IMG/VR virus record: IMGVR_UViG_2541047888_000009
Length of the DNA stretch: 40,155 nt
Direction: 5' to 3' (one strand)
DNA from: a virus
Lineage: Duplodnaviria; Heunggongvirae; Uroviricota; Caudoviricetes
Shown here piece by piece: positions 3,622 to 34,104 of this stretch (the first letter of the stretch is position 1; each line of letters begins with the position of its first letter). The notes beneath the pieces were generated by a model. The model was not told the DNA's origin and did not search any database. It was given only the letters and a program-made list of their open reading frames with translations. The position numbers were made by a program, and so were the translations under genes.

Positions 3622-6396
3622 TTACACTCCTGATACTTCAATAGATAGTTGAATCTTATTTGGCATCTTGTTGCTTAAATATATGGTTGCAAAGTCAAAC
3701 GAAATATTTAAGTTATTTTCATCACCATCATTATCTGAAAGAACTCCGGTTTTCAATACAACATTTTGCTTATTAATTTCTTTTAAAGGAGAAAAATCAA
3801 TTGCCTCACCACGATGAATAAGAACACCAACTGCAATTACCCCATGAATATCAAGTATGTCGTGCATATCAAGGCGAACACATGGGACATATCCACCAAC
3901 AAGGATACTTGTAGATTTGTTGGCTTCAAGTGTTATTAGATATTTTCCGTCTGGTTGAACTATTGTTCCTGCTATTCCATCTGGCGTGTTGAACATACCG
4001 CAGTATCTGTATCCTGCTCCAACAGGAACAATTCTGTTACCGCCAAGATCATGGAAATTTCGAACAATTATTGCACCAGGAACTGATGAATAAACCATTA
4101 CTGCCTCTGTTTGCCCTGATACAGAGTCTGATGTTTCTGGGTTCGCCATGCATAAATTACCACCAAAATAAATATTTTGGATTAGAGGGGTGAGGCCATC
4201 ATTAACCTCAAAACGTAAAAAGCCCTTGAGAACAGTCCTTGCGGTATTATTCTTAATAACAACAGGAAGTTCTTTATAGTAAGAGTTTCTGTCTGTCTGT
4301 GCCAGAGTTGTTTCAATAAAAACAAAAGGTCTGTGATTACGTTGAGTTGCATTCACAGGTTTGTACCTCAAGTTGTATGGCAAAGACATCTCAGTAAAAC
4401 CATCAATATAATTACAGTTCTGAATCGTGAACCCACCACCACTATATCTTACAAAAAAAGGAGCCGGGCCGCTAAATCCCCTGGCGTTCATTCCATCATA
4501 CACTTCATTTAATCCGCGTATTACACCAGCATAATACAAATTGACTGAATTGCCGCCTGTAAAAGTTGTTTCGTATGATGGGCCGTGTCCACCGCAACAT
4601 GAATTTCTTGTATCGCCATCAGGGAAAAATTTAACTCCATCATATGCAGTTCCACCACCCATCATCGTTGGATTTATAATGTTATTATACAGTGATACCA
4701 TTTGAGTCCCGCTTACATCAAGCCCCCTCCTGCAAGCAAATGCTATCATATCCACGACTGTGCAATAGCTGCTATTGTATATTTCAACACCATAACCAGT
4801 GCCGTTTGTTAAATCATATGCACGGTTTGAGTATTCAATATATGGCTCTATTATTTTCGTTCTGTAGCATGACTCAAGAAAAATTCCAGTTTCTGAAAAG
4901 CCGATTAGTTTTATTCCTTCTATATGCATATCAACAGCGCCATCTATCACAAGACCACGGAACCCCAAATCACCAGGAGATGCGTTCTGCGTGACAGGTC
5001 TTTCAAAATTGAAATCACCGACAATTCTGCCGTAGCATGGTTTTCTTTTATATATATTTGCCTTTCTTGTGATTTTAAACACGTCTCCAACAGATGGTTT
5101 AAACGGGAATGGTCCCTGAGCATATTCAAATTTTGCTGTTTTAGTGTCGTAATCCCAATGAGTTATGTATCTTGATATTCCGGCGTTAGCTCCGGTGACA
5201 CCTGTTACTTTTACCTGATTGTATTGTTTTGTTAATGTTGCATCATTACCAAATGAGAATTCACCTCCGGATACAGATGCTGTTACGGTCGTTGAGTAAT
5301 CATTGCTCGCAGAGTAGAAAAAATAAAATGCACCTGATATCTCCGCTTTTTTTGTTGCATTATCAAAAGCAGTAACAACATGCATTTCACCTTCACAAGC
5401 CTGTCCTCTATTATCTGTCTGAATTAAGCGATTACCATGAATCATAATTATATCGCCTGCATCAAAAGAATATGCTGAGTTAATTGATATTGATGTGTCA
5501 CCAGGATTTATTGTTGAATTATAGTCAATTGGCGTGGCATCTCCACCTTCGAGTCTTATGAAATAATCATCAATCCAGTTTGGACCAAGAGGCTCTTTTG
5601 CGGTTGACTTTAAGACAACCTTGCCATCAGCTACCCAGTCATAGTTATAATTATCCCCGCCGCATTTTATGCGGCTAATCAAATACACACCAGAATCCCA
5701 CTTCAGGCGTTTTCCGTTAGATGCGCAGTAAATGATGGCATTTGTTATTGCGTCTGTATCGTCAGTAATGCCATCCCCTTTTGCACCAAAATCGCGAACA
5801 TTGACGATATCCCGCATCTTATCCTGGAACGTTCGATATACTGCCCCAAAACCATACTGAATAAACCAACCAAAACCACCAACAACCCCGGCGATTGCAG
5901 CATCGACATAATTACGCATTGAGCGATTATTTACAGCATCCTGCTCAAGTGATGGATCTGCAAGGTTAGAAATTCTGTTTTGCTTTGCATCGTAATATTT
6001 TGCAAGCAAAGATGGTTTCATCAATGCACGTCTGAACCACCCAAAACATCGCTGGATCAGCATCGTCAGGTAGTCAAATGCATCCTCATGAACTTCGGGG
6101 AAAAATTTTCCCTGATTGCGAAGATCAGTCTCCTGCACCACATCAAGCACACGCTCTATCGTGATTTTCCAGCCAGCAGCAAGCGGCGACGGAAGAACAA
6201 CAGAACCGCCACTATAAGTGCCCGCCCCAGTTACCGTATAACCGGTATCCAGAACCAATTCTGTTACGTTACCGTTCAGGTCAGACACCTGAACAACCAG
6301 GTCTGTTTTTTTGAAAATGCGGAAGGTATACGGAAATGATGTCGTAACGCCGTTACCTGTGTATTCGTTGTGGTCAACTTCGGTTGAGACCGTCAT
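3622..6396 (-). CDS. Tailspike protein: T7 gp17-like N-terminal adaptor domain fused to a pectate-lyase-like beta-helix (polysaccharide depolymerase type)
   Basis: N-terminus EYTGNGVTTSFPYTFRIFKKTDLVV resembles the T7 tail-fibre N-terminal domain; internal motif NVRDFGAKGDGITDDTDAITNAI is typical of pectate-lyase superfamily beta-helix tailspikes; GGAG RBS. Confidence 0.8.
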   Translation of the reverse strand: MTVSTEVDHNEYTGNGVTTSFPYTFRIFKKTDLVVQVSDLNGNVTELVLDTGYTVTGAGTYSGGSVVLPSPLAAGWKITIERVLDVVQETDLRNQGKFFPEVHEDAFDYLTMLIQRCFGWFRRALMKPSLLAKYYDAKQNRISNLADPSLEQDAVNNRSMRNYVDAAIAGVVGGFGWFIQYGFGAVYRTFQDKMRDIVNVRDFGAKGDGITDDTDAITNAIIYCASNGKRLKWDSGVYLISRIKCGGDNYNYDWVADGKVVLKSTAKEPLGPNWIDDYFIRLEGGDATPIDYNSTINPGDTSISINSAYSFDAGDIIMIHGNRLIQTDNRGQACEGEMHVVTAFDNATKKAEISGAFYFFYSASNDYSTTVTASVSGGEFSFGNDATLTKQYNQVKVTGVTGANAGISRYITHWDYDTKTAKFEYAQGPFPFKPSVGDVFKITRKANIYKRKPCYGRIVGDFNFERPVTQNASPGDLGFRGLVIDGAVDMHIEGIKLIGFSETGIFLESCYRTKIIEPYIEYSNRAYDLTNGTGYGVEIYNSSYCTVVDMIAFACRRGLDVSGTQMVSLYNNIINPTMMGGGTAYDGVKFFPDGDTRNSCCGGHGPSYETTFTGGNSVNLYYAGVIRGLNEVYDGMNARGFSGPAPFFVRYSGGGFTIQNCNYIDGFTEMSLPYNLRYKPVNATQRNHRPFVFIETTLAQTDRNSYYKELPVVIKNNTARTVLKGFLRFEVNDGLTPLIQNIYFGGNLCMANPETSDSVSGQTEAVMVYSSVPGAIIVRNFHDLGGNRIVPVGAGYRYCGMFNTPDGIAGTIVQPDGKYLITLEANKSTSILVGGYVPCVRLDMHDILDIHGVIAVGVLIHRGEAIDFSPLKEINKQNVVLKTGVLSDNDGDENNLNISFDFATIYLSNKMPNKIQLSIEVSGV

Positions 6397-6500
6397 GTTA
6401 AATCTCCAGATAGTCGCAGCACCCGTTGCGCCGCATATCTGGTTATTCTATTACCTGAAAAACCACATATGGATAGAAATACTGTGAATATAAATAGATA

Positions 6501-6515
6501 TTACCTTTTAGGTAA
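6501..6515. promoter_or_regulatory. Copy of the operator palindrome TTACC-N5-GGTAA (TTACCTTTTAGGTAA) upstream of the LexA-controlled moron
   Basis: Exact match to the 15-bp inverted repeat that clusters in the immunity region. Confidence 0.5.
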
Positions 6516-6554
6516 TTTGCAAAACGTGCTGGATAGCAAACAAATTATTTGATA

Positions 6555-6570
6555 CTGTATAAATATACAG
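6555..6570 (+). promoter_or_regulatory. LexA (SOS) box CTGTATAAATATACAG
   Basis: Perfect CTGT-N8-ACAG palindrome with AT-rich centre, 22 bp upstream of the ATG at 6593 and overlapping the probable -10 region. Confidence 0.7.
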
Positions 6571-6592
6571 TTATTGCATGGAGAAGATTAAG

Positions 6593-6850
6593 ATGCAGCA
6601 GTATCACTATCCACTGGAAGACGGATTTACCGAAAGGATTCACACGCCGGGAGGCGTCAAGTCACTGGTGGAGGGATCGCACTTGATGAAATTACTCCGG
6701 GATCTAGATAAGGATGGATTTAATGTCGATGGCCCACTTGCCGAACTGACTGCACTGATTAACTACGTCACCAGCTCACAGATGTCTATGCAGGATCTGC
6801 AAACACATCTCGACTATTGTGCCGAACAATTACGAAAACAAACCACATAA
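6593..6850 (+). CDS. LexA-regulated small protein (85 aa), opposite strand to the virion genes; candidate antirepressor
   Basis: ATG at 6593 preceded by GGAG (6581..6584); LexA box immediately upstream; followed by a hairpin terminator. No family recognised. Confidence 0.6.
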   Translation: MQQYHYPLEDGFTERIHTPGGVKSLVEGSHLMKLLRDLDKDGFNVDGPLAELTALINYVTSSQMSMQDLQTHLDYCAEQLRKQTT

Positions 6851-6856
6851 AGAAAA

Positions 6857-6872
6857 GGCCGCGAAAGCGGCC
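6857..6872. terminator. Hairpin GGCCGC-GAAA-GCGGCC, terminator for the minus-strand membrane-protein gene and probably the plus-strand moron
   Basis: 6-bp GC stem; on the minus strand it is followed by TTTTCTTTAT; on the plus strand the T-run is displaced by the GTGACATGTCAC palindrome. Confidence 0.5.
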
Positions 6873-6873
6873 T

Positions 6874-6885
6874 GTGACATGTCAC
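6874..6885. repeat. 12-bp perfect palindrome GTGACATGTCAC, copy 1 of 3
   Basis: Exact 12-mer also at 24431..24442 and 26882..26893; all three in short intergenic gaps. Confidence 0.8.
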
Positions 6886-7178
6886 GTCCCTTTTCTGAAT
6901 GATAGCCATTCGAAAAATGATGACATTCCACCGCAGACAATAGCAAAGATGATCCCACCAAAGAAGAGAAGGCCAGCCTGCCACCACTCCCACCGCCATA
7001 CATCCACAGCGCCAACCATACCAACAATCGCTCCAACAAATGGAATATAGCTCACGATGAAAGCAATGGGGGCTGCAATTATCCAGTGCAATCCCCACCA
7101 TGATTCAAGCCCAGCCATAATTGCTGCCAACTGAAAAAGACCAACGACGATATAAACAATGAATCCTATAGCTTGCAT
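6882..7178 (-). CDS. Small integral membrane protein (98 aa), unknown function
   Basis: AGGTGA RBS; three hydrophobic helices and a Trp-rich loop (VDVWRWEWWQAG); lies between the last internal virion protein gene and the tailspike. Confidence 0.55.
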   Translation of the reverse strand: MQAIGFIVYIVVGLFQLAAIMAGLESWWGLHWIIAAPIAFIVSYIPFVGAIVGMVGAVDVWRWEWWQAGLLFFGGIIFAIVCGGMSSFFEWLSFRKGT

Positions 7179-7373: not shown

Positions 7374-9848
7374 TTATTGCGGAGTGACATCCTGAGGTCG
7401 CCACCAGTATGTCTGGTTAAACTCTTTCTTCGAACGTTGCTCCATTTTACGCAAATAGCCTGGTGAAAAATACTCCTGCATCTGGTTAAAGATCATGTGA
7501 TCGAGAGCCGCCTTCAAGTACCAGAGATTCGCACCAGGCATCAAACCTTTCCCCAGCTTCACCAGATCACCACCAGTCTGCTCACTCTTCCCTTCCACAG
7601 CATTTAACGGTATGCCCTGAGCAATCTTCACTACGTCATCAACCAGACCAGCTACCGGGCCAAGCATCGACGCCAGCGCGCCGCTTCCGTACCTAGTGTG
7701 ATCTGACAATAAAAAGTCACCGTAAAGGCCAAGACCACCACCTTTCAGTAGAGCACCAAGCCAGAATTTTGCGGCATCTTCTCCTGTCATCTCTCGAGGA
7801 TTACGACCAGACGCAAGGTCGTTAAGTTGCTGCGACAAAGCGCCAAGAATGGTCGTACTGGCAATAAACGTCGCAATATATGCCGCACGCCCACCAGCAG
7901 ACGGCATACCCATAGCGCGTGACCAGTGACGCATAACAACCGAGATAGGGAACGATTTAAACAGGAAAACACTTCTCGTTAATTCACCTTTCCATGTTCC
8001 ACGCTGAATACCAGAACCGGTTATCAGTTGCTCACGTGCTCCCGGTGTAATAACAGCCATATCAACTTCTTCAGTTACGGCACCGAGCAGTTTACGCATT
8101 GCCTCAAATTTCACGCGTTCAGGCTCACCAAGATGTTTAACTGCTGAATCAGGGATACGCATAATGCTTTCCGGTGTCAGCATCGTATTATTACCGTTCC
8201 CCCAATCCTCCTGTTGCGCCAGCTTCCATACGCTCCAATCTGTGTCAGTAATCCCTTTGCTTTTCAGGATACGAAAATCAGAGTCATCGAGGCTACGAAG
8301 GTCTGGTGTCCGTGACACTACTTCTCCCAGGCTTCCCATCATGGTTACGCCATAGGCGCGCTTGTGCGCATCTGACCATGCTGTAAGCCCACTGGCACGC
8401 ATTACCGCCGTTGCCGCCCAACGAGACACTGACGGCCCCATATTATCCATCGCCCAGCGGTTAACGCTGCCAAGTAGAGATTCCATTGCCAGACCAGCGC
8501 GGCGCGCCCGCGCAAGTTCTGTACGGTTCGTTGGGTCCATAGCTTCAAGCTGGTTGCGGAATAACTGGTTCATTGGAAGGTTGGTAACCTTCGCAGACAG
8601 ATACATGGTTCCAAGATCAGAGAACGATGACAGCAACGCGGATCCGAGTCTGCTGGCAACCAGCCAGTTGCGGATATTGTCAGACCATCGCGCGATGTGC
8701 GGATTCGCTACAGGCTGTGTCTTTCCGGAAATAAAGTTGTACAGATTCTCTGTGTTGTTCGCCAGCCGCTCGACTTTACCGGTTTTACTCGGGTTAGCTG
8801 TTGCCGTTTCTGCCTTAACCTGATCAAGAAGGGAGCGGAAAACATGATCGGGGTTTGGACCATATGTTTCCACCAGAGCAATATCTTTACTGATACCTTC
8901 CAGGTGACCGACCATGATTTCCCATAGAGAGCGATCGCCATAAAGTTGTTGATATTGGAGATAGGAATCTGCATCTTTGAAATGTATCTGTCGTGATGCA
9001 TTACCACGGTTAGCACGTGCGCCGGAAATTCGCATTCCGGTATCAGTAAGCTTATTCAGCCCACCAGTAGCGATCGTGTTATAAGCCTCTCCAAGAAATG
9101 CAGACAACTCGGCATCGTTCATCAGTTGTCCATCGGCTCGGGTATAATATTTGCGATCCAGCTTACCTATAACATCGCTAACCCATTTATCTTTTGATAC
9201 CGCCCCAACCTTTTCCATAGAATGATGTTGAGGGATCCCCCAGTTTTCGAGATAGCCAATGTCCCCACCAGCATCATTAAACCGGCGGCGCAGTAGATCT
9301 GTCACTTCTCTCCACGCCTTAGCACCTTTTCTTGCTTTAGCATTGCCAGTATTTTGCCCTCGCATTTCATATACCAGGTCACGCACGCCCGCTTCATCTT
9401 CAAACAGGCCAAAAAAGCGAGGATCAACTGCTTCAAATGCCTCCTGCAATTGACTCAATGCATAATCACGAGTGGCTTTTGTTCTGGATTCAACAGAGAG
9501 GAAATTCGATTTACCGTCTGCATTAAAAGCAATAGTACGGTTAAGAGCGCCAAGTTTCCCATCAGCCCCTTGATAGCTATTGATAAATTTATCCAATCTC
9601 TGACGTGCGGCTATAGTGAGGGCCACACGACGTTTCTTTAATGCCGCTTCTCGCTGTAATTCTTCAGATGCCAATTGTGCTGCACGATACAACCGTTCTG
9701 ATTCGGAAAGTTGTCGCCACGACATAGGGTCATCACGAGCAATGGAGCGCATATTTCGATAAATGCGGTCTTCAATGTTCTGTATTTCTCGCGCCGTTAA
9801 CGTGCGCTGCGCCGCCTGCTGGACCGCTTGTATACATTCCTGTCTCAT
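7374..9848 (-). CDS. Large internal virion / DNA-ejection protein (824 aa)
   Basis: Position in the T7-like order after the gp15-like gene; GAGAGG RBS; Gly-rich hydrophobic C-terminal region. Function inferred from position and size only. Confidence 0.6.
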   Translation of the reverse strand: MRQECIQAVQQAAQRTLTAREIQNIEDRIYRNMRSIARDDPMSWRQLSESERLYRAAQLASEELQREAALKKRRVALTIAARQRLDKFINSYQGADGKLGALNRTIAFNADGKSNFLSVESRTKATRDYALSQLQEAFEAVDPRFFGLFEDEAGVRDLVYEMRGQNTGNAKARKGAKAWREVTDLLRRRFNDAGGDIGYLENWGIPQHHSMEKVGAVSKDKWVSDVIGKLDRKYYTRADGQLMNDAELSAFLGEAYNTIATGGLNKLTDTGMRISGARANRGNASRQIHFKDADSYLQYQQLYGDRSLWEIMVGHLEGISKDIALVETYGPNPDHVFRSLLDQVKAETATANPSKTGKVERLANNTENLYNFISGKTQPVANPHIARWSDNIRNWLVASRLGSALLSSFSDLGTMYLSAKVTNLPMNQLFRNQLEAMDPTNRTELARARRAGLAMESLLGSVNRWAMDNMGPSVSRWAATAVMRASGLTAWSDAHKRAYGVTMMGSLGEVVSRTPDLRSLDDSDFRILKSKGITDTDWSVWKLAQQEDWGNGNNTMLTPESIMRIPDSAVKHLGEPERVKFEAMRKLLGAVTEEVDMAVITPGAREQLITGSGIQRGTWKGELTRSVFLFKSFPISVVMRHWSRAMGMPSAGGRAAYIATFIASTTILGALSQQLNDLASGRNPREMTGEDAAKFWLGALLKGGGLGLYGDFLLSDHTRYGSGALASMLGPVAGLVDDVVKIAQGIPLNAVEGKSEQTGGDLVKLGKGLMPGANLWYLKAALDHMIFNQMQEYFSPGYLRKMEQRSKKEFNQTYWWRPQDVTPQ

Positions 9849-23779: not shown

Positions 23780-23856
23780 GTGGCATTAGCTCAGTCGGAC
23801 AGAGCAACCGCCTTCTAAGCGGTTGGTCGCAGGTTCGAATCCTGCATGCCACGCCA
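23780..23856 (+). tRNA. tRNA-Arg (anticodon UCU, reads AGA)
   Basis: Full cloverleaf folded by hand: acceptor GTGGCAT/ATGCCAC, D-arm GCTC-AGTCGGACA-GAGC, anticodon arm ACCGC-CTTCTAA-GCGGT, T-arm GCAGG-TTCGAAT-CCTGC, discriminator G, encoded CCA. Confidence 0.85.
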
Positions 23857-23942: not shown

Positions 23943-24019
23943 CAGCAGGACGCCATTGCGATGACTTCATGCTGTAAACCCGTACAGCCACGGAAGGCAT
24001 AACTCATTGCTTCCAGTTC

Positions 24020-32981: not shown

Positions 32982-33212
32982 TCATGAGTAGAAGAAGTAT
33001 GCCAGTTCTGCTTTTGAGCGCAGCCATTGTCTTGATTTACAGGCTTTAAAAAGCCCATCCATCAATACCTTACCTGGCATTTTGCGCTTACCTGTTAAGT
33101 GAGTCTGGATATAGTGACTCGTCGTTCCGGCTTCCTGTGCGAAGGCTTCACGCTCATCCGGAGTAAGTGCAAGCCAGTGCTTTTTGAAATCGAAATGTCC
33201 GTTATCGCTCAT
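32982..33212 (-). CDS. Cro-like HTH regulator
   Basis: 76 aa, divergent from the repressor gene across the operator cluster; HTH-like segment REAFAQEAGTTSHYIQTHLTGKRK. Confidence 0.55.
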   Translation of the reverse strand: MSDNGHFDFKKHWLALTPDEREAFAQEAGTTSHYIQTHLTGKRKMPGKVLMDGLFKACKSRQWLRSKAELAYFFYS

Positions 33213-33237: not shown

Positions 33238-33311
33238 ATAATAAATATTCACCTATAAGGTAACAAAAATCAAGGATAGTTACCCATGAGGTGCATTTAC
33301 CTGTTGGGTAA
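33238..33311. promoter_or_regulatory. OR-like region: three operator palindromes (33249..33263, 33280..33294, 33297..33311) and a PR-like promoter reading leftward
   Basis: Sites TCACCTATAAGGTAA, TTACCCATGAGGTGC, TTACCTGTTGGGTAA; on the minus strand -35 TTGTTA (33261..33266), 17-bp spacer, -10 TATTAT (33238..33243), about 25 bp before the Cro-like ATG. Confidence 0.65.
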
Positions 33312-33366
33312 TATTGCTTTAAATTGAATCATCTACTGATTCATATATGAGGCGATTTTCCAGAAA

Positions 33367-33951
33367 ATGAAAAGTATCCAGGACGTCCGCAGGCAAAATC
33401 TCAACGACTTGATCGACCGTGAATTCAATGGTGTTCAGACGCGGATGGCCGAAAAACTTGGAACTCAGGCAAATCTGGTAAACCGCTGGGCTCTTGGTAA
33501 GAAGGTTATCGGCGATCAGGTTGCGCGAAAAATTGAAGCTGCCGCCAATAAACCCCGTAACTGGCTTGATATCGATCGCTCGCTTTCTCAGGAAGGTTTT
33601 CAGCCTGTCGGCCCAAGCGACATTGGCCAGCTGGCGGCTCACAACCTGGAACGCTGGATGAGCGAAAGCCGCGACCTTTCAACACAGGGAAAACTTCACC
33701 GCGCATCCGGCGTAGCCCAGGTGACAATCAGCCGCCTGTTAAACAATGAGGTCAGCGTTTCCATTTCCACCCTGGAGAATGTTGCATCTGCATTCGGGCG
33801 TCACGGATATGAACTACTGATTCACCCGCACGACCCTGCAACTATCAACTATGACCGCTCGCGCTACGCATTGTTACCTGAAACAGAGAAAGCAAAGATC
33901 GAAAGTTACATTGAATTTGTCATCAACCAGAACGAAAAAAGCAAACAATAA
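33367..33951 (+). CDS. Prophage repressor (CI-like), tandem XRE-type HTH domains, no recognisable S24 peptidase domain
   Basis: Two HTH-like segments (QTRMAEKLGTQANLVNRWALGKK and ASGVAQVTISRLLNNEVSVSISTLENVASAFG); sits between operator clusters, divergent from the Cro-like gene; terminator follows; no SD before the ATG. Confidence 0.65.
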   Translation: MKSIQDVRRQNLNDLIDREFNGVQTRMAEKLGTQANLVNRWALGKKVIGDQVARKIEAAANKPRNWLDIDRSLSQEGFQPVGPSDIGQLAAHNLERWMSESRDLSTQGKLHRASGVAQVTISRLLNNEVSVSISTLENVASAFGRHGYELLIHPHDPATINYDRSRYALLPETEKAKIESYIEFVINQNEKSKQ

Positions 33952-33997: not shown

Positions 33998-34008
33998 TGC
34001 CAGATAGA

Positions 34009-34085
34009 TTACCTTACGGGTAATTTTTTTAACTCATATCTATTGACACCAAACCAAATAAGCATAATTATTACCTCAACGGTAA
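34009..34085 (+). promoter_or_regulatory. OL/PL-like region: operators at 34009..34023 (TTACCTTACGGGTAA) and 34071..34085 (TTACCTCAACGGTAA) flanking a -35 TTGACA (34043..34048)
   Basis: Consensus -35, AT-rich -10 region (CATAATTAT) about 16 bp downstream, operator over the +1 region; heads the rightward early operon. Confidence 0.6.
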
Positions 34086-34104
34086 CAGACCGAGGTAACA
34101 AGTT

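Follow-up and report, generated by a model that had tools for sequence, protein, structure and literature searches.

A predicted SPC32H-type antirepression switch in a phiV10-like prophage of Escherichia coli

How can a temperate phage couple its induction to DNA damage when its repressor lacks a self-cleavage module, and why should a small gene lying among the virion genes be read in the opposite direction and be preceded by an SOS box? Both questions are raised by a viral sequence of 40,155 nucleotides (IMG/VR record IMGVR_UViG_2541047888_000009; the whole stretch is called the window hereafter). A sequence-only reading had proposed that the gene, which encodes 85 amino acids (aa), specifies a small LexA-repressed antirepressor directed against a repressor that does not cleave itself. 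This proposal is supported by the homology of the two proteins to Ant and Rep of Salmonella phage SPC32H and by the shared gene order. By the comparisons described here, the window is a phiV10-like temperate podovirus prophage of the genus Uetakevirus, and its regulatory system is one already known, namely an E. coli copy of the LexA-controlled antirepressor Ant of SPC32H.

The small gene and its neighbours

The gene, here called ant, and its surroundings are laid out as follows.

3622-6396, minus strand: tailspike gene (924 aa), neighbour of ant
6593-6850, plus strand: ant, 85-aa antirepressor, orthologue of SPC32H Ant by homology and gene order
6856-6873, strand not applicable: G+C-rich hairpin between the convergent ant and 98-aa membrane-protein genes
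6882-7178, minus strand: membrane protein (98 aa), convergent with ant; phrog_3075, with a weak holin-like Pfam match (E = 0.027)
7374-9848, minus strand: virion protein (824 aa), beyond the membrane-protein gene

The single Protein Data Bank entry matched by the 85-aa protein was 5D50, the Rep-Ant complex of Salmonella phage SPC32H, in which chain E ('Anti-repressor protein') is 87% identical to it (E = 3.8e-47, residues 2-85 against 3-86). The protein also matches phrog_450 (E = 3.8e-47), a group labelled 'unknown function', while Pfam and NCBIfam scans returned sub-threshold noise (DUF724, UpsF) and no family model. Pfam gave no match to the P22-type antirepressor family, nor to the Bro-N, ANT or KilAC domains. 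The SPC32H Rep/Ant antirepression system was described by Kim and Ryu in 2013 (J Virol 87:11775) and by Kim et al. in 2016 (PNAS 113:E2480; structures PDB 5D50 and 5D4Z). The earlier suggestion that the protein could represent a new family is thus wrong, because the family already has a crystal structure, a PHROG and a published mechanism. On each feature of the SPC32H-type Ant family that can be examined in a sequence, the 85-aa protein agrees with that family.

For the program-made reading frame the start is placed farther upstream, at ATG 6578, giving 90 aa, and this in-frame codon overlaps the Shine-Dalgarno sequence. In the alignment with the solved SPC32H chain, residue 3 of the chain is paired with query residue 2, and the chain thus begins at the position equivalent to 6593, which supports a start there. 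The two proteins are of nearly equal length (85 aa in the window, 86 aa in SPC32H). Between the two ant genes we counted 34 synonymous and 11 non-synonymous codon differences, which indicates that ant is under purifying selection.

As the sequence-only reading had noted, the small gene is opposite in strand to the virion genes; ant is on the plus strand and its neighbours on both sides are on the minus strand. A comparison with the records of relatives shows that SPC32H-type ant genes keep to this location, with the tailspike gene on one side, virion-protein genes on the other and both read from the opposite strand. The order of tailspike (minus), ant (plus), small membrane protein (minus) and large virion protein (minus) is shared with SPC32H, in whose record the gene is annotated 'ant: anti-repressor protein' (KC911856). 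The neighbouring membrane protein differs, with one of 98 aa in the window and one of 46 aa downstream of ant in both SPC32H and phiV10. The hairpin between the convergent genes (-16.4 kcal/mol, z = -4.9) is terminator-like on the minus strand, the T-run being found on the minus-strand side only, and an equivalent stem-loop is annotated in epsilon15.

The stretch from 6400 to 6900 is 95-98% identical to phiV10, TL-2011b, vB_EcoP_ZX5 and others, and 100% identical to a prophage in the chromosome of E. coli 1517k (ant at L015:3194-3451). SPC32H belongs to the same genus, Uetakevirus; it differs from the window, whose host is E. coli, in its host and in its repressor (Rep 42% identical).

The LexA box, the candidate promoter and the repressor

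The elements upstream of ant, together with the repressor gene and its divergent neighbour, are the following.

6530-6558, plus strand: candidate ant promoter (-35 TGGATA at 6530-6535, 17-bp spacer, -10 TACTGT at 6553-6558)
6553-6572, strand not applicable: LexA (SOS) box TACTGTATAAATATACAGTT, core CTGT-N8-ACAG at 6555-6570
6580-6583, plus strand: Shine-Dalgarno sequence GGAG, 9 nt 5' of the ATG, kept in 8 of 9 aligned phages
32982-33212, minus strand: Cro-like regulator (76 aa), divergent from rep; phrog_35 'transcriptional repressor', E = 8.7e-13
33367-33951, plus strand: rep, 194-aa repressor, SPC32H Rep homologue in which no autocleavage module was found

A pattern search of the window located the core CTGTATAAATATACAG at 6555-6570, exactly where the sequence-only reading had placed an SOS box. 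The 20-mer TACTGTATAAATATACAGTT differs from the E. coli consensus TACTGTATATATATACAGTA at 2 of 20 positions, and it is the sole site within three mismatches of that consensus in the whole window; none of 100 dinucleotide-preserving shuffles of the window yielded any such site. The bare pattern CTGT-N8-ACAG is not significant alone, with 2 matches in the window against 0.56 expected and 2 matches reached in 12 of the 100 shuffles. Its second match, CTGTAAACCCGTACAG at 23972-23987, was rejected as a LexA box in view of its G+C-rich spacer and more than three mismatches from the 20-mer consensus, and is probably a chance occurrence. This match lies near a tRNA gene, tRNA-Arg(TCT) at 23780-23856 on the plus strand, which was found by both Rfam and ARAGORN. 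An Rfam scan of the window returned nothing besides a tRNA; a tRNA-Arg is found at the equivalent place in SPC32H, and a tRNA is also reported for the ZX5 genome.

We examined 14 related loci, made up of nine Uetakevirus phages from an alignment of the tailspike-ant intergenic region (this window, phiV10, SPC32H, SPC32N, epsilon15, Tyrion, BUCT554, BUCT711 and 65FD, from the hosts E. coli, Salmonella, Enterobacter and Klebsiella) and five enterobacterial prophages from a species-level genome scan. The scan covered one genome per bacterial species with a limited set of sequence patterns and returned six loci, of which the sixth, in a Clostridiaceae metagenome-assembled genome, was dropped as too weak (38% identity over 32 aa). 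The box is found at the same position in all 14 loci, its left half-site being variant in three. Among the nine aligned phages the half-sites TACTGT and ACAGT are essentially invariant, while the spacer is variable and A+T-rich, which is the pattern expected for a LexA site under selection. The window shares with SPC32H the distance between box and start codon, the box ending 20 nt 5' of the ant ATG (6593), and the two boxes differ in their spacer (TATAAATAT versus TATGTTTAT).

The perfect box is kept in prophages of Citrobacter braakii, C. werkmanii and Candidatus Erwinia dacicola. Prophages of Superficieibacter and Klebsiella and the Klebsiella phage BUCT711 instead carry ATGT-N8-ACAG (for example TATATGTATATATATACAGTA), at these places:

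L007:1459-1653 (BUCT711): ATGT-type box, ATGT replacing CTGT in the left half-site
L020 and L021, around 1450-1480: ATGT-type boxes, with the same replacement

LexA may bind less strongly where the half-site is ATGT, in which case ant might be expressed more leakily in Klebsiella and Superficieibacter hosts.

A natural variant falls within the box itself. Across a 205-bp region, SPC32H and SPC32N show a single difference, a C-to-A change that turns the ACAG half-site into AAAG. Kim and Ryu reportedly found in 2013 that one LexA-box mutation renders Ant constitutive in SPC32N and the phage effectively lytic.

Our best guess for the ant promoter is the pair TGGATA/TACTGT, in which the putative -10 hexamer is formed by the first six nucleotides of the LexA box, so that the box would overlap the promoter. 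It was chosen because both hexamers are invariant in the nine-phage alignment (CTGGA.A and TACTGT) and because the layout resembles that of p95, the annotated SOS promoter of phage 186, where the LexA box likewise starts at a -10 TACTGT about 20 nt before the start codon. A scan for consensus sigma-70 promoters on the plus strand upstream of ant gave none over threshold, the pair TGGATA/TACTGT included. Two other pairs were set aside, namely TTGCAA (6517-6522) with ACAAAT, whose -10 is not conserved, and TTGATA (6549-6554) with TATTGC, whose -35 is not conserved.

The product of rep matches chain A of 5D50 ('Repressor') over residues 1-190 (E = 3.5e-42) as well as the truncated 5D4Z. It is homologous to SPC32H Rep along its full length, with its domains in the same order and 42-43% identity (BLASTP), and is 99.5% identical to the phiV10 repressor; the SPC32H GenBank record annotates its homologue as 'rep'. 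Pfam detected HTH families only: HTH_3 covers residues 106-147, and another HTH-like stretch spans residues 21-61. The repressor had earlier been described as two HTH domains with no S24 module, and this description holds, as a profile search for a cryptic Peptidase_S24 domain (Pfam, E up to 1) found none and the alignment with 5D50 chain A accounts for the whole length. By its domain content, Rep is outside the class of self-cleaving S24 repressors of the LexA and lambda-CI type. Its C-terminal part retains a series of invariant positions (Y162, D163, Y167, L170, P171, E174, K175, K177, I178, F184, Q188 and N189), and six Reps share without change the N-terminal HTH segment NLVNRW, presumed to be the DNA-recognition segment. 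The divergence of the two proteins from their SPC32H counterparts is unequal.

The proposed switch, its analogues and its rivals

We propose that the locus is very probably the antirepression induction switch of a phiV10-like E. coli prophage, orthologous to the Rep/Ant/LexA system of SPC32H. In the lysogen, host LexA would occupy 6553-6572, overlapping the probable ant promoter and keeping ant silent, while Rep would sit on ATTACC-N5-GGTAAT operators and hold the lytic genes off. Rep would consist of an N-terminal HTH DNA-binding domain, an HTH-like middle part and a C-terminal domain for tetramerisation and Ant binding, without an S24 protease. Upon DNA damage, activated RecA would bring about LexA self-cleavage and Ant would be made. 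Ant would then bind the C-terminal domains of Rep and convert the DNA-binding tetramer into dimers, freeing the operators for lytic growth.

These steps have been demonstrated for SPC32H and likely apply to the present phage as well. According to PMC7380047, which cites the SPC32H work, the SOS response leads to LexA cleavage, production of Ant and inhibition of the repressor. PMC9638917 describes an Ant tetramer that binds two Rep dimers and breaks the Rep tetramer, and PMC9986798 assigns both tetramerisation and Ant binding to the C-terminal domain of Rep. In the published accounts Rep is released from its operator and is itself uncleaved; a 2025 preprint also covers the mechanism.

Comparable logic is found in unrelated phages. 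In phage 186, too, a LexA-repressed antirepressor encoded outside the immunity region (Tum) inactivates a non-cleavable repressor (CI), but 186 is a P2-like myovirus, its Tum is 146 aa long with no detectable sequence similarity to Ant, and its CI is unrelated to Rep. The antirepressors GfoA and GfhA of Gifsy-1 and Gifsy-3 (Lemire et al. 2011, PMC3121763) are likewise small, stand under LexA control and have their genes outside the immunity region; they bind uncleaved repressors and free them from DNA. The Gifsy phages differ from the window in being lambdoid siphoviruses, and no homology to their antirepressors appeared in the PHROG and Pfam results for Ant; a dimeric interaction is reported for the Gifsy proteins (PMC3121763), in contrast to the tetrameric Ant of SPC32H (PMC9638917). 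Tum and the Gifsy antirepressors are therefore functional analogues of Ant, not relatives. P22 Ant, encoded in immI, is similar in position: it too is an antirepressor of a temperate podovirus, and its gene lies in the late region beside the tailspike gene. P22 Ant has about 300 aa, is controlled by Mnt and Arc and not by LexA, and is dispensable for SOS induction because the P22 repressor C2 is cleavable. A P22 ant mutant is still SOS-inducible, according to PMC7380047.

The sequence-only reading had named a DinI-like role as an alternative, and a small, acidic protein under LexA control, like dinI, might indeed be an SOS modulator of the DinI or Tum type that acts on RecA or LexA. The C-terminal half of 186 Tum is DinI-like. 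Yet the 85-aa protein showed no match to the DinI family in Pfam at E up to 1 and no relevant match in NCBIfam, and a one-to-one BLASTP against 186 Tum gave E = 0.069 over a gapped stretch of 46 aa, which is not significant. Its identity to a protein crystallised with a phage repressor effectively refutes this role, which we hold to be extremely improbable. We give just as little credit to a fortuitous LexA-box match in front of a gene that is constitutive or driven by another signal. The bare core pattern is not rare, but the 20-mer is unique in the window and absent from the shuffles, its position and half-sites are conserved in the 14 loci while the spacer varies, and the natural mutation of SPC32N falls inside it.

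The box and the gene could instead be a moron or a remnant with no role in the induction of their own phage; Ant might, for instance, have lost its recognition of the diverged Rep and work only on other prophages, in trans, or have no target at all. Gifsy antirepressors are documented to act across prophages (PMC3121763), and Rep (42% identity to its SPC32H counterpart) has diverged far more than Ant (87%), for which reason contact between Ant and Rep in this phage is assumed here. Against this reading stands the distribution of the two proteins, with Ant in 35 and Rep in 37 phage records that form essentially the same set, almost entirely made up of Uetakevirus phages and relatives of these from E. 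coli, Salmonella, Enterobacter and Klebsiella; across the genus the two essentially always co-occur. The purifying selection on ant also speaks against it, as do the many invariant positions in the C-terminal part of Rep, the Ant-binding domain according to the literature. Furthermore, a tblastn search of the window found no second Ant-like domain, and there is no Bro-N gene either, so that the small Ant is the only visible induction route of the window; with Rep devoid of S24 and no other antirepressor-like gene at hand, taking Ant away would leave no visible route for SOS induction. We judge the moron or remnant reading very improbable and retain the antirepression switch as the explanation of the locus.

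Operator-like palindromes, Bro-N fusions and annotation

The antirepression switch presupposes sites for Rep, and the intergenic region between ant and the tailspike gene holds a candidate. Copies of its motif in the window include these:

6500-6516, strand not applicable: perfect palindrome ATTACC-N5-GGTAAT, ATTACCTTTTAGGTAAT, presumed Rep operator, in the ant/tailspike intergenic region
33248-33264 (3 mismatches) and 33296-33312 (1 mismatch): operator-like palindromes in the rep/cro intergenic region
34008-34024 (perfect) and 34070-34086 (1 mismatch): operator-like palindromes downstream of rep
Other palindrome positions: 23442, 26584, 26602, 30903, 30965 and 32911

Allowing up to two mismatches, the 17-bp motif occurs 12 times in the window against 1.07 expected, an approximately 11-fold excess. 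Besides the copy near ant, good copies precede the terminase and head operons, fall in the early region (30903 and 30965), follow rep and lie between rep and cro. The half-sites of the palindrome at 6500-6516, which sits 36 bp upstream of the LexA box, are invariant in all nine aligned phages, and SPC32H has the same operator-like palindrome upstream of its ant. In the epsilon15 record the equivalent site is annotated 'protein_bind: repressor', and the sites matching those downstream of rep are also annotated 'repressor'. ATTACC-N5-GGTAAT is presumably the Rep operator. Since both NLVNRW and the operator half-sites are kept, Uetakeviruses of E. coli and Salmonella may share operator specificity and Ant cross-reactivity.

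With this palindrome invariant beside the LexA box in nine phages, ant may answer to two regulators, LexA and Rep. Under such dual control, Rep bound at 6500-6516 might damp ant, or the divergent tailspike promoter; the first Ant molecules would release Rep, and more ant transcription would follow in a positive feedback. A perfect site 36 bp from the box, the excess of the motif and its other occurrences, which fall within the immunity region and ahead of the terminase and head operons, favour this idea, as do the invariant half-sites, the repressor-site annotation in epsilon15 and the invariance of the presumed recognition segment NLVNRW. However, the palindrome lies at about -50 to -66 of the inferred promoter, outside the core promoter, and it might just as well act on the divergent tailspike promoter or do no more than anchor a Rep tetramer. 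We regard dual control as a tentative and rather unlikely addition, one that would elaborate the LexA-controlled antirepression switch and would not contradict it.

A further conserved block in the same intergenic region, ATTCTATTACC at 6445-6455, has A.T.TATTACC invariant in the nine phages and reads GGTAATAGAAT on the minus strand. The hexamer TAGAAT is a candidate -10 for the tailspike gene, about 50 nt upstream of its ATG and with no recognisable -35.

The Ant sequence also recurs as part of larger proteins. Ant matches phrog_1760, a group of Bro-N 'anti-repressor' proteins (E = 4e-7), and the C-terminal ~75 residues of two such proteins align with the entire Ant sequence at 38-42% identity.

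L014:2574-3266: vB_EcoP_ZX5 ORF4, Bro-N 'anti-repressor', directly downstream of the small ant
L005:2226-2927: Tyrion gp20, Bro-N 'anti-repressor', directly downstream of the small ant

Unlike Ant, these proteins possess an N-terminal Bro-N domain, and their gene is absent from the window. Pfam detects only Bro-N in ZX5 ORF4 and Tyrion gp20, having no model for the Ant-like C-terminal domain. For phiV10p23, tblastn gave no Ant-like match (the phiV10 record has one place of similarity) and Pfam gave Bro-N only. Taken at the level of sequence, the fusions indicate that the Ant fold is modular. In 2022, a study of vB_EcoP_ZX5, an E. coli phage nearly identical to the present one, tested the Bro-N protein ORF4 as 'the' anti-repressor, leaving the small ant as hypothetical, and found that overexpression of ORF4 lowered lysogeny (PMC9782041). 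As ORF4 carries an Ant-like domain, this result may work through that domain. With still greater reserve than for dual control itself, we speculate that control of ant, and perhaps of the tailspike promoter, by Rep and LexA together would create an Ant-Rep-ant feedback and all-or-none induction, with the Ant fold serving as a mobile repressor-binding module.

For another phage of this genus the mechanism, the family and the three-dimensional structure of the complex are already in the literature, so the window holds no discovery in this respect, and the practical value of the present analysis is in annotation; some residual value also attaches to the arrangement of presumed Rep operator and LexA box next to ant. 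Recognising ant explains the SOS coupling of these common prophages and, through it, their induction by quinolones or mitomycin C. In O157 and other pathogenic strains, some prophages of this kind have genes for O-antigen modification. The records of phiV10, epsilon15 and most relatives list ant as 'hypothetical protein', and an orthologue is present in 544 of 5,426 complete E. coli genomes (~10%), where PGAP names it 'hypothetical protein' as well.
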